A stretch of 45,788 nt of DNA from Candidatus Doudnabacteria bacterium (GTDB lineage Bacteria; Patescibacteriota; Doudnabacteria; UBA920; O2-02-FULL-48-8). The position numbers and the translations under genes were made by a program. The notes beneath the pieces were generated by a model. It searched no databases and was not told the DNA's origin. It saw only the letters and a program-made list of their open reading frames with translations. Location: NCBI GenBank assembly GCA_016186915.1, contig JACPKU010000007.1:1-45788 (forward strand), given 5' to 3'. Shown one piece after another: positions 3,078 through 41,443 of this stretch. Position 1 is the first letter of the stretch, and the number at the start of each line of letters is the position of its first letter.

Positions 3078-3128
3078 AAAAGTCTTCTATTCTAACTTTA
3101 CAAACTCAGAACTTAGAACTTTATTAAC

Positions 3129-3875
3129 TCAGAACTTATTTCTTAGCCTTTGAATCTCGGCCTCATAAATCTCGTAGCTCTCCGGATGCGCTTCTTGGGC
3201 CTTTTGCCACTGCTCGATTGCTCCACTTATGTCGCCAATGCTTTCCAAATACCCAGCAAAGCTGGTAAAGATATCGGTCTTTTCCTTTACCGCTGCTTCA
3301 GCCAAGGCATATAAGTCCCGAATTTCAGATTCCGACCAATCTAATTTTTCCACGGCCAACAGCAGATACCGTCTCCAAGCGTCGGGATTATTCGGCAGGA
3401 GCTCCAAAGATTTTTGAATGCTTGCTTCCGCTTGTTGGTAGTTTCCCATTTCAAAGTAAACTTGGTATAAGTGGACATAAATATTAAAGTTTTCCGGATT
3501 AACCTCGGCCGCTTGAATAAAAACATCCCTGGCCTCGGCCAGCTTGCCTAATCCAGACAGCTGGACGGCCTTGTAAACCAAAGCGTCGGATTTTTCTTGA
3601 TTATCTTTGGCTTCGGCAATAAATCTCTCGGCCTCAACCAAACGGTCTTCGTAAACCTTGCGGTCTTCGTCGCTTAGCTTGCGGTCCACTTCCTCAATGA
3701 AACTGGTTTGCTTCTGTTGCTCCTGCCAAACCGTAAAGCCTATGACTGCGCCGAGTAAAATAATAGCAATTAGGATTCCAAAAATAAGTTGTTTATTTCC
3801 GCCAATAGATTTTGCGCCAGCCGGAGGCTCAACCTTCGGCTGAAGTCCGCCCCCGGCGGACATTTCTTCGTTCAT
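3129..3875 (-). CDS. Membrane-anchored TPR-repeat protein
   Basis: TM helix followed by TPR-like helices (A...P.N..Y..L...Y..MGNY..A); the N-terminal about 25 aa are encoded by a palindromic repeat. Confidence 0.8.
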   Translation of the reverse strand: MNEEMSAGGGLQPKVEPPAGAKSIGGNKQLIFGILIAIILLGAVIGFTVWQEQQKQTSFIEEVDRKLSDEDRKVYEDRLVEAERFIAEAKDNQEKSDALVYKAVQLSGLGKLAEARDVFIQAAEVNPENFNIYVHLYQVYFEMGNYQQAEASIQKSLELLPNNPDAWRRYLLLAVEKLDWSESEIRDLYALAEAAVKEKTDIFTSFAGYLESIGDISGAIEQWQKAQEAHPESYEIYEAEIQRLRNKF

Positions 3876-15429: not shown

Positions 15430-15894
15430 CTATTTTCCTTTTTCTTTTTTCTTTTCCATTGCTTCGCCTTTTTTCTTTTCTTCTTCTGGCAGGTCCTTAT
15501 ACAAAGTGCCCAAAACACCGTTTATAAACTTCCCACTGCTTTCTCCTCCAAATGTCTTGCCCAACTCCACTGCTTCGTTGATTACCACTTTGGGCGGCAC
15601 TGATTTGGCAAACATTAACTCATAAATGCCAAGCCGTAGGATGTTGCGATCCACCACTGTGATCTGATCCAGTGGCCATTCCGGCGCTGTTTTTACTATT
15701 ATTTCATCAATTTTGGGCAAATTATCTTCGACACCTTTAAGCAAATCAAAAATAAAAACAGGATCTTCTAATCCCGGGCCAAACTGCTTAATGTTGTATT
15801 CTGCAATTTCTGCAAGCGGTTTGACTCGGTCGTTGAAGTCCCATTCGTAAAGACTTTGCATCGCAATTGTTCTGGAGAGATGTCTGTTGGCCAT
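15430..15894 (-). CDS. nusB: Transcription antitermination factor NusB
   Basis: [53 protein letters not shown]. Confidence 0.96.
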
Positions 15895-15896
15895 AC

Positions 15897-16097
15897 CTAA
15901 CTTTTGACTTTTGACTTTTGACTTTTGAGTTTCAATACTTGCTTGCCTTTGTAGTAGCCGCAGTTGGTGCAGGCCTGATGAGGCATCGCTGGGTATTTAC
16001 AATTCTGACAAATGCTGAGATTGATCTTGCTTAGAGCGTCGTGCGATCGTCTTTGGTTGCGCGAGGATCTGGTTTGTCGTTTTTTAGGTACTGGCAT
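15897..16097 (-). CDS. rpmF: 50S ribosomal protein L32
   Basis: [19 protein letters not shown]...PH.AC..CGYY; C-terminal tail encoded by a (TCAAAAG)n repeat. Confidence 0.95.
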
Positions 16098-16202
16098 AAG
16101 GTTAGAATATAGAATGTTGAATGTAGAATATGGACTGTTAATTTATAGCATAAAAAGTTGTGCGAGTCAAAAAAATTACCCTTATATCTCTTTTCTTAGC
16201 GA

Positions 16203-16458
16203 GGAATTCCTGCGAAATTAGCCTTCGGAACCCTGCCCGCGGCAGGGTGAGAACGCAGGGAACGTCTGACGTTCCAGGCTGCGTTTCGTAGCAACGAAAC
16301 GACAGCCGTTAATTTCGCAGGAATTCCGAGCGCTCCCAGGCAGCTGCCGACGAACAGGAGACCAGCGCTAGTTTTGCAAATAGTACTGGATTCGTCGACA
16401 GGTGTCTGAAAACGGGATGGAGAGAGCGCAAGTGCGGTTAAGCTACCGCGCTCTCTCC
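16203..16458. ncRNA. Putative structured RNA/ssDNA domain at the end of cassette 1
   Basis: Perfect 18-bp stem GGAATTCCTGCGAAATTA/TAATTTCGCAGGAATTCC (16203-16220/16310-16327) enclosing three hairpins; GGAGAGAGCGC/GCGCTCTCTCC stem at 16409-16458. Confidence 0.6.
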
Positions 16459-16469
16459 TTGAACGCACC

Positions 16470-16733
16470 TCACGGATCTGGTTCGTCAGCCAGGCCGAAA
16501 GGGACGTTATTGCAGTCCGGGTCTTGCTCGCACTCGGCCAGCGCTTTCTCCATCTTGCGCTGGAAGCGCTGGTCAGGCGTGCGGACTGCTTCGAGCTCCT
16601 GACGCACCTCCTCGCTGGGATTAGGCGCGAGCAGTACAAGCAACGCCCCTATCACCAGCAACGAGACGACCGCCGCAATCACCCACGCGAGCACGCTATT
16701 GCCTTGGGGCGATCCAACGATTTCGCCTCGCAT
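16470..16733 (-). CDS. Orphan single-TM protein (87 aa), cassette 1
   Basis: Start reassigned to the ATG at 16733 behind AAGGGGG; TM helix then charged helix and CxxxxxC. Confidence 0.65.
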   Translation of the reverse strand: MRGEIVGSPQGNSVLAWVIAAVVSLLVIGALLVLLAPNPSEEVRQELEAVRTPDQRFQRKMEKALAECEQDPDCNNVPFGLADEPDP

Positions 16734-16746
16734 AGTTTGTCCCCCT

Positions 16747-16860
16747 TTAGAGCAAGGCCGCCGCGACCACAATGATTGCGATCACGACGATGGCGCCAAC
16801 TACGTACTTGGCCCGCCCTGACTGCTTGGGCGGTTCCGGGTTCAGTAGGATCGACGGCAT
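16747..16860 (-). CDS. Orphan 37-aa membrane peptide, cassette 1 (not in ORF track)
   Basis: GGGAGG-aaaca-ATG; MPSILLNPEPPKQSGRAKYVVGAIVVIAIIVVAAALL. Confidence 0.6.
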   Translation of the reverse strand: MPSILLNPEPPKQSGRAKYVVGAIVVIAIIVVAAALL

Positions 16861-16871
16861 TGTTTCCTCCC

Positions 16872-17036
16872 TCAGTGTACCGTTGGCCGACCCAACGGAT
16901 GAAAACAAACGCGAATGACCACGTCCTCGAGTTCTTGACGCTCAAGCGCGATCTCGTCGCGACTCAAACGCTTGGGACCAGTAGGACCATATCCGAACCT
17001 CGCGAACTTGTTTGGGACGTCAGGACCCTTTTGCAT
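16872..17036 (-). CDS. Orphan 54-aa protein, cassette 1 (not in ORF track)
   Basis: AGGAGG SD; MQKGPDVPNKFARFGYGPTGPKRLSRDEIALERQELEDVVIRVCFHPLGRPTVH; tiles head-to-tail with the next two ORFs. Confidence 0.6.
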   Translation of the reverse strand: MQKGPDVPNKFARFGYGPTGPKRLSRDEIALERQELEDVVIRVCFHPLGRPTVH

Positions 17037-17106
17037 ATAATGGTCCTCCTACACCTCCACAATATAAGATACTTTGAGAATTCATACAAGCATCCTAAAT
17101 TCCAAA

Positions 17107-17395
17107 GGCTTCTCCCGCCGCTAAGCTTGAAGCTCAAGCTCACTGGCGGGAGAAGATCTGAAGTCTTGGGGGACTATCAGATCTCCGTGAAGTTTCCTGG
17201 CGGGGGCCAGTGTAAGCTGGCAGCCTGCGTTTGAAACGCAGTTAGGAAACCTCGGTTTGCCGGTGGATTTTGTGGGTCCCCTATCACCGGCAGGTGGGCG
17301 AACTCCGACGGACCGAGCAGCCGGCCTTGGCGTCAAGTCGAATGACCCGAAGGCCAAGCGCCAAAAGCGCTGCGACAGCGAGAAAGGTGCATAGC
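17107..17395 (+). ncRNA. Putative structured RNA/ssDNA domain at the end of cassette 2
   Basis: Consecutive stems CTTCTCCCGCC/GGCGGGAGAAG, AGATCTGA/TCAGATCT, GTTTCCT/AGGAAAC, CTCGGTTT/GGACCGAG (G-U on +), TGCCGGTG/CACCGGCA, GGCCTT/AAGGCC. Confidence 0.6.
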
Positions 17396-17420
17396 TCAGC
17401 CATCGGACTCCTCCTTCGCC

Positions 17421-17636
17421 TCATCCGAGCCTTCTTTTCCAAACCAACCAAGCGCCGACAACGCCTGGCAAGTATACGATGGCAGCCTCGACAAAGACTG
17501 CCGTGACACCCCAGCCGAGCCCCAACTTAGGCTCCAGCCAGAGCCACAGCGGGTCGTGAACATCGCCGATGGGTCCGCCCTGAAAGGCGAATAGAAAGCC
17601 GGATAGTGCGAGCAAAAACACACCCAGAATTTGCAT
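17421..17636 (-). CDS. Orphan 71-aa two-TM membrane protein, cassette 2
   Basis: AAAAGGAGGA-cttg-ATG at 17636; hydrophobic with a basic WKRR C-terminus. Confidence 0.7.
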   Translation of the reverse strand: MQILGVFLLALSGFLFAFQGGPIGDVHDPLWLWLEPKLGLGWGVTAVFVEAAIVYLPGVVGAWLVWKRRLG

Positions 17637-17854
17637 CAAGTCCTCCTTTTGCGTCCACAATTCAGGATATTTATTCTAAGAAGTTCTGTGAGACTAAAAT
17701 TACTTGATTCTCTCTTAACTTAAATAAATATCCTACTTTTGCGGAAACAAACTAGTTTGCAAGAAGTTTAATCTTTCAACTAACAACTGTCAACTGTCAT
17801 TTCCGATCCTCTGACCTCCACTTCAATACGTTAAAGTATTAAAGTGAAGCCCAA

Positions 17855-17986
17855 GGGAAGGGAGGCTGGACGAAACGCAGTGAAGCGAATCGACCAGCCA
17901 TACTAAGAGGGATCTGTGCGCGGATATGGAATCCGCACAGCGCGGTCACCTTCTTCACGATGTCCACCGGGCGGTGGATCAAGCCG
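17855..17986 (+). ncRNA. Conserved structured element, copy 1 (homologous to 19022-19165)
   Basis: Three-hairpin fold with compensatory changes relative to copy 2. Confidence 0.7.
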
Positions 17987-18239
17987 TCGGGTGGTAAATG
18001 AACCCGCCCAGGTTGTCGGGACTGCACGAGCCGTCGCATACCCCCTTTGGCTCGAACGAGATGTCCTCTGCGTAGCTCACGTTACCGTCCTGGTCGAACC
18101 AGACATGGATCAACCAATCAACGTGAGAGTGGCCGTCGCAACCGTAATTCCTCTGGACTTCCACCTTGCCGAGGCCACCGCGGACATCAGCAGGCTCCTT
18201 GCTCTCCACCTCAACTCCGTAAATTCGGTAACCGTTCAT
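17979..18239 (-). CDS. Orphan 86-aa Cys/His-containing protein, cassette 3
   Basis: AAAAAGGAGGA-cagc-ATG at 18239; CDGHSH...CDGSC possible metal site; a 26-codon uORF (18236-18316) overlaps its start as ATGA. Confidence 0.7.
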   Translation of the reverse strand: MNGYRIYGVEVESKEPADVRGGLGKVEVQRNYGCDGHSHVDWLIHVWFDQDGNVSYAEDISFEPKGVCDGSCSPDNLGGFIYHPTA

Positions 18240-18334
18240 GCTGTCCTCCTTTTTTGCTCGGGTTTGCTCGGGCGAGCGATATTTCGGGCACACTGGTCGC
18301 ACACCTTGTCCTCCATAACTTCTCTGGAACCATT

Positions 18335-18379
18335 CCCTCCCAGAAAATTCCAATTGCTTGAAATGCTCTGGGAGAGAAA
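18335..18379. repeat. 45-bp imperfect palindrome at a cassette boundary; second copy at 20732-20776
   Basis: CCCTCCCAGAAAATTCCAATTGCTTGAAATG(C/T)TCTGGGAGAGAAA, 44/45 identical. Confidence 0.9.
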
Positions 18380-18432
18380 AAGAATTGATTTGATTTTTAA
18401 ATAACAATAAATTATACTAAGATTACTAACTT

Positions 18433-18690
18433 ATGAAAAGACCGAAGATTGCTCTGAGCCACCACGCACATTATCAGATCAAGGAACGGAAACTGTCAAT
18501 TCAGAAAGTCAAAGCAGTCGTTCTTAGTCCAGACAAAGTCACAAAGCAACCTGACAACCGCTTCTTGGCTTACAAACTAGTTAAACGCTCTGATAAAGAT
18601 TATCTGTTAATCGTGATTTATGAACAAACCAACTCAAGGCTTAAAATCGTGACCACATTCTTAACCTCTAAACTTCGTAAATATTTATGA
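18433..18690 (+). CDS. DUF4258-like (RelE-fold) putative toxin
   Basis: LSHHA..QIKERKLS...V..V..SPD...LLIVIYE....KIVTTF. Confidence 0.75.
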   Translation: MKRPKIALSHHAHYQIKERKLSIQKVKAVVLSPDKVTKQPDNRFLAYKLVKRSDKDYLLIVIYEQTNSRLKIVTTFLTSKLRKYL

Positions 18691-18902
18691 AATTCCATTA
18701 CGATAAAAAAATTGACGCTCTCTCTATCCGTTTCAATGACAAACGGTATGTTGAGTCTGACCAGGTTTCGGATGACATCATCTTTGATTATGACAAGCAA
18801 GGACATATCATCGGGATAGAAGTGCTTAATGCTTCCAAACGCTTCCCCAAAGAATTTCACAAACAACTTCATAATAAGCTAATTCCAGTCCAAACCGTCT
18901 AA
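18687..18902 (+). CDS. DUF2283-family protein (putative antitoxin)
   Basis: MKFHYDKKIDALSIRF...DDIIFDYDKQGHIIGIEVLNASK; ATGA overlap with the upstream gene. Confidence 0.85.
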   Translation: MKFHYDKKIDALSIRFNDKRYVESDQVSDDIIFDYDKQGHIIGIEVLNASKRFPKEFHKQLHNKLIPVQTV

Positions 18903-18982
18903 GCAAGGCGCCTGCCCGCCAAAGCTCGAAGAGCAAAGGCGGGGTTTTAATTTATCAAAGAACTTTCCCTTCCTCTACGCTC

Positions 18983-19012
18983 CACTTATAATACGTTAAC
19001 GTATTATAAGTG
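18983..19012. repeat. Perfect 30-bp palindrome; degenerate copy at 17819-17846
   Basis: CACTTATAATACGTTAACGTATTATAAGTG vs CACTTCAATACGTTAAAGTATTAAAGTG. Confidence 0.85.
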
Positions 19013-19021
19013 TAGAACAAA

Positions 19022-19165
19022 GGAAGGGGCTGGACGAACGAATTGCTTGCTGTCCAGCTGCGTTGGTAGGGACTTGTGCGCGAGCAGGATGCTCGCACAG
19101 CGAGGTCACCTTTCACGATGCTTGCCGAGCGGCAGACATCGGCTGGTTTTCTGGTCCAGCAACCA
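19022..19165 (+). ncRNA. Conserved structured element, copy 2
   Basis: GCTGGAC/GTCCAGC; GACTT..CGAGC-AGGAT-GCTCG..AGGTC; CGATG-TGCC-GAGC-GGCA-CATCG. Confidence 0.7.
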
Positions 19166-19167
19166 CT

Positions 19168-19794
19168 TTAGTGCCTCCTGCTAACCACGTAGTTCACTCG
19201 CACTTGGGAACCGGCCGGCAACTTCTGGAACCACAGTTCCACACTGCCGGCCTGGTTGAACTTCACCGTTCCCGTGACGAACGGCTTATGCTCCCAAGCC
19301 TGATCCCCGAACTTGTAGGCGGCGTAGCCCGCACCCGCCTTGAACCGGCCAAAGTCGTACTCGAGCTTCGCCCGGTCGAGAACGTGCTGGATACGTGCAA
19401 TTTTGTTGATCGGCACGTACAGCAGATAGTTGGCCTGCGCGCTCACCCGCTCGGTCAGTTGGAACAGTCCGAGCACGAACGGTTGGACGTATCGCTCGGA
19501 TGTTCCCGGACTGATGGCCTGAACAAAGTAGGTCTCGGCCACCAACGCCATCCGCTTGGCAGGCGTGAGCACTCGGCCGGCACCGACATACAGCTCACGA
19601 TAAACGTCAGAGCCGAAGTCAATGTAGCCAAGATCCCAGGCCACCGTATTGCCTCGAGTCTGATAGACCTCAAGCAACCGATATGTATGGCCGTCGGAGT
19701 TGCCAGCGATGCGGAACTCCGCACTGGTTTCGGTCTGCGCGAAAAGCTGCACAGGCAGGCTGATTACAAACAGAACAACAAGGATTCTGGTCAT
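19168..19794 (-). CDS. Secreted protein resembling an outer-membrane beta-barrel, cassette 4
   Basis: GGAGG-caagc-ATG at 19794; signal peptide (..QLFA|Q); alternating hydrophobic beta-strands rich in Tyr/Gly. Confidence 0.65.
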   Translation of the reverse strand: MTRILVVLFVISLPVQLFAQTETSAEFRIAGNSDGHTYRLLEVYQTRGNTVAWDLGYIDFGSDVYRELYVGAGRVLTPAKRMALVAETYFVQAISPGTSERYVQPFVLGLFQLTERVSAQANYLLYVPINKIARIQHVLDRAKLEYDFGRFKAGAGYAAYKFGDQAWEHKPFVTGTVKFNQAGSVELWFQKLPAGSQVRVNYVVSRRH

Positions 19795-20299
19795 GCTTGC
19801 CTCCATGCGCTTTCGCGCCAAAAAAGAACGATCTAGTTGCTTCCACAATCTTGAACACTTTATTTAAGCATCAAAAATTCTGGAAACAATATTCTCCCTC
19901 ACCCCCGTCCCCTCTCCCCTGAGGGGAGAGGGGAGTTCTAATTTGTAAAAATCATTTGCACAACTCTGGGTGCTAAGAAACTTCTTGGAACTATGGTACT
20001 GAATAATTTTCCTGTTTAACTGCTAACGCCCAGAATGGTGGAAACCAGCCTTCTCCCGGACTTGATCCGGGGTTGGACTGATAAGTAAAATGTATATACA
20101 AAAGTATATACACAGATATAACTTTTTTAATGTTCGATCATATAATATTGTATTATACTTAAATACTGTAAAGTATTTAAGTTTTTCCGATCCTCTGCCC
20201 CGAACCAAATGGTTCTGGGGCAAGGGAAGGGAGAGAGACGGGATTTACTCAATCAAGAGTGTCAACCATCTCTCTTCTTCACACACAAACTTCCTCCAA

Positions 20300-20662
20300 T
20301 CATTTCTGTGATCGGCCCGCTGCTCTCGTCCTGAAGTACTGGACGAGCATGGGCAGAACAATGAGTAGTCCCAACATCCTCATCGCATTGCCGATCAAAT
20401 CGTACTCCGGCCAGAATGAGATGGTCGAACCGACAACCATCCCGACCGCGCCAGTCCAGAAAACCAGACAGGAGAACATGATCTCCGGGACTGTCGCCAG
20501 AGCGCCGCCATACCCGAGAATCGGGAGGCCGTTACTCAAAAGCTCTCCCGACCAGCCCGCAAGAAACGGGAAGTCTTGGATCACCCGTGGGTGACCCACG
20601 AAGAACCCGATGAAGACCAGCACAACGCCGAACTTCAACAAAGCCTTAGCACAGCGGTCCAT
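20300..20662 (-). CDS. Orphan multi-TM membrane protein (120 aa), cassette 5
   Basis: GAGGTG SD; three to four hydrophobic segments, basic C-terminus. Confidence 0.7.
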   Translation of the reverse strand: MDRCAKALLKFGVVLVFIGFFVGHPRVIQDFPFLAGWSGELLSNGLPILGYGGALATVPEIMFSCLVFWTGAVGMVVGSTISFWPEYDLIGNAMRMLGLLIVLPMLVQYFRTRAAGRSQK

Positions 20663-21302
20663 ACTCTATCACCTCGCGCATTATTCCCACGCCTTTGGCG
20701 GGGTCAGCGCAAAAAAGAACGATCTATTCCTCCCTCCCAGAAAATTCCAATTGCTTGAAATGTTCTGGGAGAGAAATACCTATAAATTTTTGAGCGAGGG
20801 TTGTCTGCGAAAAAAGAATCTCGGAGCTGAAACCGCTTAGTTCCTGCGGTTACAGGGAGAGCTTAGCGGCAAATTTTGCGTCCAGTAAAATTTGACCTCG
20901 TCTTTTTTCACAGACACCCGAGCGTTATTTCCACAATTCTGGGCACTGCTGTATGCAAGTGTACGGGCATAAAAAATATGGTTATCCCTCTTAAGCATAA
21001 GTTGAATGCCCAGAACAGTGGAAACAATAACGCGGGATGGCGGGCAGGTTAAACCTCACTTGTCCGCCGAAGTCCCGCAAAGCGGGACGTAGGCGGATAG
21101 AGTGCCCAACATCCGAGAAGCAAAAAATCCCTTGTTCAGGGACTATTCTAGCTCTGCTATAAGCTATCAGCTAAAAGCTATAAGCTTACGGCTTCCGTCT
21201 CCTGAACGGAAAATTATATATAGTAACCCTTCGATTTCGCTTCGCTCCGCTCAGGGATCAAATGTTGCCTGAGCTTGTCGAAGGCGATCATGTAAGGGTC
21301 TA

Positions 21303-21348
21303 TTTTCAAAGAACAGGCAAGTATATACCAAAATCGCAATCTTGTCAA
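21303..21348 (-). promoter_or_regulatory. sigma70 promoter followed by a boxA-like antiterminator, pointing into the cassette array
   Basis: On the - strand: TTGACA-17-TATACT-tgcct-GTTCTTTGAAAA. Confidence 0.75.
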
Positions 21349-21435
21349 CCCCTTTAGAGTAAATATTGGCTAATATAAGCCAATATTTATCTTTTTGATA
21401 TAATAAACCCAAGACCCCAAAGGAGGATATTCGCG

Positions 21436-22239
21436 ATGAAAAGACTGTTGCTTGTGCTGGCACTGACAGTTGGTGCCATGCAGGCACCAGTTGGACAGGA
21501 ACAAACGCCTGAACCGAACCGCATCAAGCGGGTGCCAGAAGACACGCGAGACTGGGTGAATGCCTACTTCCCGCCCGAAGTCATGGAAGTGCTTTGGCTT
21601 ACTGACTACGCTGCCTTAGACCAAGCCTATGAGAACGGCTGGCTGGTTGATATCCCGCAAAACAGCGACCCCTTGGCAGAAGCTCTGGGGATTCGATTGC
21701 AGACAGAAGGCGACTTCCCCATTGCCGAAGCAGAACCCGATCCCAAGCTTAAGGTCAAGCTCTTCCGCCTGGCCAAGCCTGGGGCAGGCTTGCTCTACTC
21801 GATCGCTGATCATGTGCGAGAGGAAGAGAGAAAAGAACGAGAAAGAAGAAAGCTCCAACCAAGGCCGTTCTTGCCCATCGGCGTTACAAGCCTGGTCAGA
21901 ACGGCAGAATACCAAGCCCGCCTGATTCCTCTCAACGCTAACGCAGATACAGAGAGTCAGGGCGTACCAGCGACCCACATAACTGGATTGGTGACTGACA
22001 TCACGCGCGCGAACATGACTACAGCGCGTGATAGAATCGTCTCTAACTATCTGATCGAGCTTAGAGACGCTGATAAGATCCTTTACTTCCGTGAAGGGGC
22101 CAAACAGGCCACCTACCACGTGATCGCACTCCTGCAAACCCGCGAATTCTTCGAGGCCGAGTATGACCGACTGCTCCTTAAGGCCCGGGAACGAATGGCC
22201 GCCGAGGCACAAGGAACAATCGAAAAGCCGAACGACTGA
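21436..22239 (+). CDS. Secreted DUF5715-like / peptidase M15 (LAS)-type Zn protein
   Basis: AAGGAGG SD, signal peptide, VTSLVRT.EYQ..L...N.NA....PATHITG...DI (H-x6-D) and TYHV; hairpin plus T-run terminator at about 22224-22260. Confidence 0.7.
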   Translation: MKRLLLVLALTVGAMQAPVGQEQTPEPNRIKRVPEDTRDWVNAYFPPEVMEVLWLTDYAALDQAYENGWLVDIPQNSDPLAEALGIRLQTEGDFPIAEAEPDPKLKVKLFRLAKPGAGLLYSIADHVREEERKERERRKLQPRPFLPIGVTSLVRTAEYQARLIPLNANADTESQGVPATHITGLVTDITRANMTTARDRIVSNYLIELRDADKILYFREGAKQATYHVIALLQTREFFEAEYDRLLLKARERMAAEAQGTIEKPND

Positions 22240-22336
22240 CTCGCTCGGCTTCTTTTTTTTACAGATTATTGAAACGAGGAATAGTTGCAAAATTAGCCTG
22301 CGCAGGACAACGGTGATTATGCAACCTATTCCTAAG

Positions 22337-24022
<1,686 letters not shown>

Positions 24023-24110
24023 CTACCTGCCTACCGGCAGGCAGGCGAATAACATCCGAATGCCACGAATGGCCTGACCCTCAAGATTCGGATCATTCGG
24101 ATCGCATATA

Positions 24111-24404
24111 TTACTGAACTATCCCGAGGATGTCCTCGTCTTTTAGAAATTTGTATTCGACCTTGCCTTTGCCATCTGGTGATTCCATTTCGACTTCGTC
24201 CCCGGCGTATTTGCCGAACAGCACTTTATCGCCAATCTGCAAATTCAACTTTTTTATTTTCTCGCCGTCGCCGATTGCCACTACTTCGCCCTGCTCTTTC
24301 TTTTCTTTTTCCGCCGTATCCGGCAGCACAATGCCCGACTTGGTCACTTCTTCCTGGGTTAAGGGCTTGACCAATACCCGGTTTCCCAATGGTTTAATAT
24401 TCAT
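24111..24404 (-). CDS. groS: Co-chaperonin GroES
   Basis: IKPLGNRVLV...TKSGIVLPDTA..GDKVLFGKYAG. Confidence 0.98.
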   Translation of the reverse strand: MNIKPLGNRVLVKPLTQEEVTKSGIVLPDTAEKEKKEQGEVVAIGDGEKIKKLNLQIGDKVLFGKYAGDEVEMESPDGKGKVEYKFLKDEDILGIVQ

Positions 24405-37525: not shown

Positions 37526-37724
37526 AAATTCTCTTTCGCTCCAAGCATAATTTTTAAGGCGGCGGTAACCCGCCGCCTTTCCTTTCTTTTCTTTATTCAC
37601 TTTCGAAATGCGGAACGCGAGGCGACGGGCTGCAAATTAACCCGCGCAGCACGACGGTGCAAGCGAGTAGGCTGCTCCGCCAGCAGGCGGAGACAGCCGG
37701 TAATTTACAGTCTGTCGCCGAGCA

Positions 37725-40331: not shown

Positions 40332-40461
40332 GTTTGTTTCCTTTAGTTAATTCTTTAATTATAATAGCGATCCGAATGATCCAAATCATCATCCGAATTA
40401 TCCGAATCTTAAACTCAAATTATTCGTGTCATTCGGATGTCATTCGTAGATTGGGATCGCA

Positions 40462-41089: not shown

Positions 41090-41443
41090 AAATCGGTTTT
41101 TCCGCAATTTTTTCAAATTTTCCCATAATCTGGAAAAACTTATCAACAAAATCGCCCCTCCCAAAGTTTTCAATGTCAAGGCCAAAGCCAAAGACAAAAA
41201 TGGGATGATAACGTTGTAGAAAAGCATGATTATAATAATTCTGGGTCTCGCCCCGTACCTCCCTTGCCGGCAGGCAGGATGGTGCGGGGTCAAGGCCTCT
41301 CAATCCCTTCTTTTTAGCGAGAGATGGATATAAAACTAGCCTGCGCAGCACGGCGGTGCGAGCAAGCAGGCCGCCCCGCCAGCAGGCGGGGACGGCCGAT
41401 AGTTTTATAGCCCATCTCGAGCGGCATATGCCCGAGCGCTTTC

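Follow-up and report, generated by a model that had tools for sequence, protein, structure and literature searches.

A conserved junction hairpin and structured tails behind orphan-gene ORFs of the groEL-rpmF island in a Doudnabacteria genome

The complete 45,788-bp contig JACPKU010000007.1 (assembly GCA_016186915.1, Candidatus Doudnabacteria bacterium; hereafter the window) belongs to a genome of 727,988 bp in 7 contigs (97% complete, 45-47% G+C), DNA of which is present in groundwater metagenome runs. The subject of this study is the 6.2-kb island between rpmF and groEL, which is filled by small open reading frames (ORFs) without a Pfam or NCBIfam family, several of them G+C-rich; 500-nt bins of the island reach 0.55-0.60 G+C, and the cassette ORFs stand at 55-60% against 46% for the genome. 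The island holds three copies (A, B and C) of an imperfect hairpin, designated J, all within 2.4 kb and on one strand, each at the 3' side of an ORF, with a tail between J and the ORF; ORF, tail and J are together termed a cassette. The ORFs lie on the minus strand, referred to below as the gene strand. Two covariance models were used, R1 for the three-hairpin (type-1) tail, built from its copies A and B, and R2 for J. The principal features are given below.

15430-15894, minus strand: nusB
15897-16097, minus strand: rpmF
17801-17864, plus strand: J copy A, flanks TTCCGATCCTCTG and CAAGGGAAGGGAG, apex a promoter-associated palindrome; R2 75.8 bits
17864-17978, plus strand: type-1 tail, copy A, abutting the stop codon at 17979-17981; R1 137.5 bits; stem 1 at 17864-17899, stem 2 at 17908-17951, linker TTCTTCACGATG, stem 3 at 17963-17978
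17979-18242, minus strand: 87-aa cassette ORF, starting with ATG after a Shine-Dalgarno sequence; without a Pfam or NCBIfam family; not hydrophobic
18965-19030, plus strand: J copy B, a degenerate near-perfect 62-nt palindrome, flanks TTCCCTTCCTCTA and CAAAGGAAGGGGC; R2 63.8 bits
19026-19167, plus strand: type-1 tail, copy B, ending at the stop codon 19168-19170; R1 123 bits; stem 1 at 19028-19059, stem 2 at 19068-19111, stem 3 at 19121-19136, extra hairpin at 19141-19163
19168-19797, minus strand: 209-aa cassette ORF, N-terminus hydrophobic, starting with ATG after a Shine-Dalgarno sequence; no family
20185-20233, plus strand: J copy C, with its tail to 20299; R2 57.2 bits
20300-20662, minus strand: membrane-like ORF of 120 aa, with J copy C at its 3' side
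22337-23992, minus strand: groEL

An earlier, sequence-only reading of this DNA had described an unrecognised structured RNA motif in two copies behind unrelated ORFs, and the two look-alike stretches with their three stems are present as it described. Copies A (17862-17978) and B (19026-19137) have three hairpins in common and are 81% identical over 118 alignment columns, with gaps of 4 and 2 columns; by blastn the likeness spans 166 nt at 71.7% identity (E of 6e-12 in the island and of 2e-11 in the whole 728-kb genome). On a 29-pair structure 98.3% of the cells pair, and only 30-43% do so when the partners are slid by 1-3 columns. Five pairs are compensated on both sides, namely two in stem 3 and the three swapped pairs of inner stem 2 that had been pointed out before, while four one-sided changes lead to G-U and one pair is broken; 12 of 500 column shuffles match these pairing values. 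The stems that covary are separated by the invariant linkers GGTCACCT and TTCACGATG, and TTTT follows stem 3 in copy B. Both strands of the two copies fold better than shuffles (z of -3.6 and -2.5 on plus, -4.1 and -4.2 on minus).

The 2-nt and 4-nt gaps break the frame, therefore no reading frame is shared by the tails and conserved coding was ruled out; a short ORF starting in the loop of stem 2 was likewise rejected, with just 6 residues in common before the frames diverge. The adjoining ORFs of 87 aa and 209 aa are unrelated, as had been stated (no blastp match at E<1e-3). Similarity between A and B ends at the stop codon of the ORF, the motif starting directly at it (A) or 30 nt past it (B), and the motif is indeed common to gene cassettes. 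It is not a free-standing two-copy motif. The homology starts about 60 nt earlier than proposed, at 17800 and 18964, where J (an imperfect hairpin of ~64 nt in copy A) forms the core of a larger module of which the three hairpins are the variable tail, and the last 28 nt that had been assigned to copy B (19138-19165) are an extra hairpin without a counterpart in A. Copies A and B are best explained as paralogous copies of a non-coding module of ~180 nt, made of J and the three-hairpin tail.

That the tail belongs to no known RNA family was upheld by the Rfam covariance-model scan, in which none of 4227 families matched it and the window gave only 2 tRNAs at the gathering score. With Rfam 15 at E<=10 the region 15800-22400 gave 10 weak matches, none in the tails, the best of 26 bits against a gathering score of 85 bits. 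None of the 8 terminator-like sites of this region falls in 17800-17990 or 18960-19170, and the sequence after J on the minus strand is CAGAGGATCGGAAA, not a U-tract. No third type-1 tail was found in the genome itself by blastn or by R1, which matches A and B only; 150 relatives gave no real R1 match (a single one of 14.3 bits, E 0.96), and eight syntenic islands searched with the filters off gave 12.6 bits at best. Exact-pattern scans gave 18 stretches in GTDB genomes (one genome per species), 2 in JGI metagenomes and 5 in IMG/VR, all of them chance matches by R1, the best scoring 16.4 and 14.7 bits with the top match away from the pattern site. Homologs of the 209-aa protein were also followed as a route to the tail. 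Nine proteins were found including the query itself, the eight others mostly on short metagenome contigs; of 400 genomes of the phylum, 2 have a homolog. No motif lies beside them.

Copy C is followed by a short tail different from type 1, with one stem AGAGA..TCTCT and then CTTCTTCAC. J itself is 41-73 nt long and folds as.(((..((((.((hp)).))))..))), where the hairpin at the apex varies (18-47 nt in the islands of relatives) and the flanks that enclose it stay the same. The consensus of 15 aligned copies from 10 genomes begins with TTCCGATCC and ends with AAGGGAG. Among its 20 pairs, 10 are changed on both sides (34 such cells), 84.6% of the cells pair, and none of 500 shuffles reaches the covariation score; one upper-stem position is mostly unpaired (10 of the 15 copies). 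The covariation in the J core is strong, and the J core passes the check proposed in the sequence-only reading, covariation among further aligned homologs. Neither this result nor the A/B compensation in the tail can tell RNA from single-stranded DNA. No Rfam family matched J in the scan of the window, and viral contigs gave no match.

The palindrome AATACTTTAACGTATT forms the apex of J in copies A and B and lies directly 5' of J in copy C. At six of its seven other sites in the genome it stands 30 nt or less upstream of a start codon (about 106 nt at the seventh), and because of this position it looks like a promoter or operator. The island sites are 17825-17840, 18990-19005 and 20162-20177; those elsewhere are C4:47424, 47848, 71785, 175076, 254270, 336529 and 337222. 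At these ten places in total the palindrome sits in a symmetric site of ~28 nt with TATAAT-like halves. The sites may form an operator regulon. One of the genes so preceded encodes what we take, by eye, to be a small TrpR/YerC-like protein, and a second site follows just after this gene.

R2 detected J in 13 of the 24 further family genomes and in none of 126 genomes from ten other families; a looser sequence pattern found 13 of 24 and 6 of 126, the latter six without the hairpin. In 12 of the 13 other J-bearing genomes J lies on the groEL contig at 0.7-6 kb from groEL, and relative to groEL it points the same way at each of the 8 loci examined. At 19 of 20 J and J-like copies the opposite strand has an ORF of 50-226 aa that ends 39-197 nt away, and among these adjacent ORFs there are only 4 related pairs. 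All eight same-family relatives that were fetched have groEL, a variable stretch (3.5-7.1 kb), rpmF and nusB in this order. The genes common to the window island and these eight islands are only DUF5715 and one homolog of the 87-aa ORF (36% identical, in the island of relative G009), and the only island DNA that can be aligned is J, a leader hairpin (M1, described below) and one promoter region. J is 81-91% identical to its counterparts in relatives (copy A is 91% identical to the J of G006), against 68-78% for the DNA of nusB, rpmF and groEL.

The tails of relatives differ from type 1, and in three genera a type-2 tail is found, with three hairpins that carry compensated pairs (CTG/CAG vs GTG/CAC; CGGC/GCCG vs CCGC/GCGG) and with two loops complementary to each other. 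Its closing helix joins the Shine-Dalgarno-like AAGGAGGAAG, at or just after the stop codon, with the pyrimidine flank of J; the gene-strand sequence at this position of the type-1 tail is GAAGAAGGTGACC in A and GAAAGGTGACC in B. On the gene strand the type-2 tail reaches -28.9 kcal/mol with 30 pairs, of which 6 are compensated; on the other strand it reaches -25.0 kcal/mol with 28 pairs, of which 5 are compensated.

Neutral decay of a duplicated palindrome cluster, in which paired changes arise by template switching in inverted repeats, is an unlikely account of these data. The tail is known from two copies in a single genome and 12 of 500 shuffles reach the A/B values, J copy B is itself a degenerate near-perfect palindrome, and conflicting strand signals of the kind reported below are expected if neither RNA is selected, all of which such decay would accommodate. 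It would not account for a J that is better conserved across genera than housekeeping DNA in surroundings beyond alignment, for covariation in J that exceeds every shuffle, for three independent tail hairpins that stay paired over ~19% divergence, or for a type-2 tail kept in three genera.

The boundaries of the module are sharp and its parts are assorted. The two J copies a and b of relative G007 are 91.5% identical over exactly the 71 nt of J and show no likeness elsewhere. The third copy of G021 is like G008 in its upstream part and J, and like G004 and G012 in the 3' flank of J and the tail. From such mosaic copies, and from the J and tail that A and B share up to the stop codon, it follows that tail plus J is inherited independently of the preceding ORF.

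This mosaicism brings forward a reading of J as DNA, in which it would be an attC-like recombination site in a cassette array that lacks an integron integrase; the ORF would be moved jointly with its tail and J by the single Xer-type recombinase or another enzyme acting in trans, and the tail would be a cassette-specific spacer. We regard this as possible and clearly short of probable. An attC site is a hairpin of ~57-141 nt with canonical 7-nt inverse-core and core sites, and clusters of attC sites lacking integrases (CALIN) are by definition without an integrase. J resembles them as an imperfect hairpin with conserved, imperfectly paired flanks, fixed mismatches and a variable apex, present once per cassette, co-oriented, 3' of unrelated ORFs and with at least two copies close together. 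It is also a lineage-specific, homogeneous family, confined to one hypervariable locus in 14 of the 25 family genomes (this one counted), and its array contains a toxin-antitoxin-like pair and G+C-rich ORFs; the likeness of copies ends at the edges of J, and near-uniform 3' elements stand behind unrelated ORFs, as in A and B.

J also differs from them. The canonical core sites are absent from the J ends, and no integron integrase is encoded anywhere in the genome. Of two PF00589 matches only one is full-length, and this sole full tyrosine recombinase, on contig C4 away from the window contig, is Xer-type (TIGR02249 143 bits vs a 265-bit cut-off, with the XerA/XerD models scoring best). No recombinase, transposase or reverse transcriptase was found in the window island or among 146 island ORFs of the eight relatives (149 minus 3 that overlap nusB/HU at the edge of island L033), and a Pfam family was assigned to only 4 of the 146 (DUF5715 twice, PDDEXK_3 and DUF3228). 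Neither a RAYT nor an IS200-type transposase turned up in the window or the scanned island ORFs, which is as far as that scan extended. J has only 1-3 sites per genome at a locus fixed between groEL and rpmF family-wide, the cassettes have their own leaders and promoter-like sites, and the compensatory structure of the tails outside J is left unexplained. In addition, no cassette is gained or lost in the contigs of 4 DNA runs (2 studies), and depth is alike inside and outside the cassettes. An apparent joint 19011->20155 was judged an artefact of the assembly graph because one side has 26 letters, both ends lie in similar palindromes and depth does not differ.

A broader version, which we hold to be rather improbable, would see J as the recombination site of an as yet unknown integrase-less cassette system in one family of the candidate phyla radiation (CPR), by which orphan genes with structured tails would be swapped at a fixed slot beside groEL by the Xer-type or an unrecognised enzyme, and the array transcripts would be processed by a hammerhead or by J.

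The hammerhead in question comes from an Rfam scan of the relatives' islands, which gave two candidates of type III (RF00008), both below the gathering score of 48.5 bits.

G006, C9:286312-286367 (L036 4213-4268), plus strand: candidate type III hammerhead, 38 bits
G001, C1:75843-75898 (L032 4344-4399), plus strand: candidate type III hammerhead, 33.4 bits

Each has three stems and the full core CUGAUGAG...CGAAA, and is the sole hammerhead match in its genome. Both are gene-strand elements preceded by homologous ORFs and by a tail that the two have in common, the G006 candidate abutting the M1 leader hairpin and that of G001 standing ~75 nt upstream of an M1-like arm; the arrangement is thus ORF-tail-[ribozyme]-M1, in the slot occupied by J elsewhere. 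The genome of the window has no hammerhead match, with none at E<=10 in 15800-22400, and neither tail nor J has a hammerhead core.

With a candidate ribozyme in the J slot, the tail or J could be conceived as a self-cleaving ribozyme of an undescribed class that does the work of the hammerhead. The type-1 tail is a compact multi-stem element with invariant linkers between covarying stems and without a match to a known ribozyme family, and it was in gene neighbourhoods with many hammerhead and twister ribozymes that several other classes first came to light. We nevertheless consider this very improbable: invariant linkers in two copies may reflect recent duplication, the tails are wholly different between cassettes, unlike a catalytic core, and the conserved part of J is a plain interrupted helix.

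The reading that we tentatively favour, with confidence short of even, is that of a module for RNA 3'-end or intercistronic processing and stabilisation on the gene strand, in which J is also a recombination breakpoint. The module would act as minus-strand RNA and form, in every cassette transcript, the 3'-end or intercistronic unit. The tail hairpins would shield the 3' end and sequester purine tracts that resemble Shine-Dalgarno sequences, and J, an imperfect duplex of ~25 bp with invariant flanks, would be cut or bound by a double-strand-specific endonuclease (RNase III, which the genome encodes at C6:31615-32007) or by a dedicated protein, by which the mRNAs of neighbouring cassettes would be separated. 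J could double as a conserved anchor for reshuffling of cassettes by recombination, because it is nearly the sole sequence common to unrelated cassettes. That the module is transcribed, acts on the gene strand, is cleaved and stabilises its transcript is what we infer from sequence features. This RNA reading is favoured because it alone accounts for the compensation in the tails, the placement at stop codons and the hammerhead in the same slot. Of the three roles suggested by the sequence-only reading, processing would be the most plausible; for replication and packaging there was no indication, the family scan having found no phage, plasmid or replication genes in the island and viral contigs having given no match.

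Several observations weigh against this preference. The module is no standard terminator, because no U-tract follows the hairpins; the cassettes seem to carry promoter-like sequences and leaders of their own, so there would be less need for intercistronic cleavage; and the invariant flanks, variable apex and sharp boundaries suit a DNA recombination site equally well. The covariation of the tail rests on one pairwise comparison because there are only two copies, and the two hammerheads, which score below the gathering score, count as one observation because they stand in one homologous cassette. Furthermore, all four single-sided A/B changes give G-U only on the plus strand, where the lower stem of J also has two conserved U-G pairs. 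The strand signals are mixed, with J more stable on the gene strand in 11 of 15 copies (28 vs 19 G-U pairs), inner stem 2 of both tails forming there an unbroken 9-bp helix with one U-G where the plus strand needs a 2-nt bulge, and the better type-2 tail score and the hammerheads being found on the gene strand too. No RNA run was among the sequencing runs listed for 17700-19300, an observation to which we attach no weight.

The plus-strand signals are what a small RNA (sRNA) of ~150-200 nt would leave, starting from the palindrome in or beside J, ending at or overlapping the 3' end of the cassette ORF and controlling it, with the layout of J, tail and then a pyrimidine-rich, anti-Shine-Dalgarno-like stretch. 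To this reading, which we consider doubtful, the G-U pattern, the promoter- or operator-like AATACTTTAACGTATT at J, the TTTT after stem 3 of copy B, and the tail of G021, whose final plus-strand hairpin is followed by nine T just before the ORF stop, would all conform. Neither A nor C has a plus-strand terminator, nor have most relatives; the other strand gives the better fold of J in 11 of 15 copies; and the palindrome, being symmetric, might just as well serve the following gene on the minus strand, which has a 10-of-12 match to a promoter at 17793-17765. Type I toxins are small hydrophobic ORFs of under ~60 aa with a convergent, 3'-overlapping sRNA, and the adjacent ORFs differ from them, the one of 87 aa not being hydrophobic and the one of 209 aa appearing secreted.

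With reference to described systems, the module resembles cassette-end hairpins and RNase III-type intercistronic stems and is a member of no family tested. J is like the hairpins cut by RNase III in the phage T7 early region and the transcribed Neisseria Correia elements in being a long imperfect intercistronic duplex whose upper stem keeps structure rather than sequence, in a host that encodes the enzyme. It differs in that cleavage of J is a proposal and in flanks of invariant sequence, unusual for such sites; Correia elements are moreover dispersed around the genome, and J is not. Repetitive extragenic palindromic (REP) elements, their mosaics (BIME) and miniature inverted-repeat transposable elements (MITEs) are comparable as small, sharp-edged extragenic palindromes after gene ends. 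REP elements and MITEs occur in tens to hundreds of scattered copies, whereas the tail has 2 and J 3 copies within 2.4 kb of one syntenic locus. From an intrinsic terminator the module differs by having no U-tract directly after a G+C-rich hairpin, and with the type III hammerhead J has in common the cassette-junction slot in two relatives.

A literature search over titles and abstracts gave, among the matches listed, nothing on such elements in CPR genomes, where the integron and attC matches were resistome surveys, and nothing that combined hammerhead ribozymes with the candidate phyla radiation. To our knowledge, CPR bacteria (Patescibacteria) have tiny genomes that mostly lack the known machinery of mobile elements, and must vary their surface and interaction proteins. 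A family-wide, locus-specific J that marks the ends of orphan-gene cassettes offers a handle on the expression, and possibly the exchange, of such genes. As an RNA processing site, J would constitute a new cis element and likely one half of a new RNA-protein pair; as a DNA site, it would belong to an integron-like system without the integron integrase. In both cases R1 and R2 can serve as search models for CPR metagenomes and metatranscriptomes.

Further elements of the island are listed below.

18433-18902, plus strand: DUF4258/DUF2283 pair, situated between the cassettes of copies A and B; Pfam E-values 8e-7 and 3.5e-19
19955-20050, minus strand: M1, a 5'-UTR hairpin with conserved arms TTTCCAC.ATTCTGGGC and their complement
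20925-21035, and ~17655-17745 (degenerate): further copies of M1, found in relatives at L032 3733-3790 and L036 4269-4490
18334-18379, minus strand: one of two 46-nt repeats (the other at 20731-20776, 98% identity) found in the 5' leaders of the ORFs of 87 and 120 aa

The DUF4258/DUF2283 pair is AT-rich (39% G+C), lies on the strand opposite to all cassettes and has its own terminator of a hairpin plus T-run; it looks like a toxin-antitoxin-like module lodged in the cassette array. The arms of M1 are near-invariant (18-20 nt) with inserts of 60-150 nt, and M1 stands before the Shine-Dalgarno sequence of each cassette. M1 and J are the only non-coding DNA kept between islands of different genera, and in some relatives they are directly adjacent.

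At 21040-21105 a hairpin stretch of ~40 nt (TCCGCC..TCCCGC..GCGGGA..GGCGGA) has 5-30x the depth of the surrounding contig in 2 of 4 metagenome runs, with many loose contig ends at 21058 and 21101; from the raised depth it follows that this stretch recurs in many genomic contexts or organisms of the samples. A structured repeat family of ~100-130 nt without an Rfam match has at least 11 copies genome-wide, at 16190-16330, 22275-22335, 37619-37706 and 41318-41405 in the window and at C2:11877, C4:6551, 16467, 195261, 235546 and 237191, and C7:7993 elsewhere, with one in a relative at L034:1812. A long variable stem closes its core, ..AAAAYTAGCCTGCGCAG..GACGG..GCGAGC..GCAAAATCAGCAGATTTTGAC..CCGGTAGTTTTGC.., and three of four folded copies reach -63 to -82 kcal/mol, the short copy at 22275-22335 reaching -19 to -21. 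These repeats bracket the orphan-gene island on both sides, and likewise the nrdJ-nrdR block. Clusters of short tandem or inverted repeats, with the units GAACTTA and ATCCGAAT, lie at 1406-1834 and 3093-3144 and at 24027-24118 and 40354-40446; the last two are inverted repeats 16 kb apart that bracket groES through nrdR.

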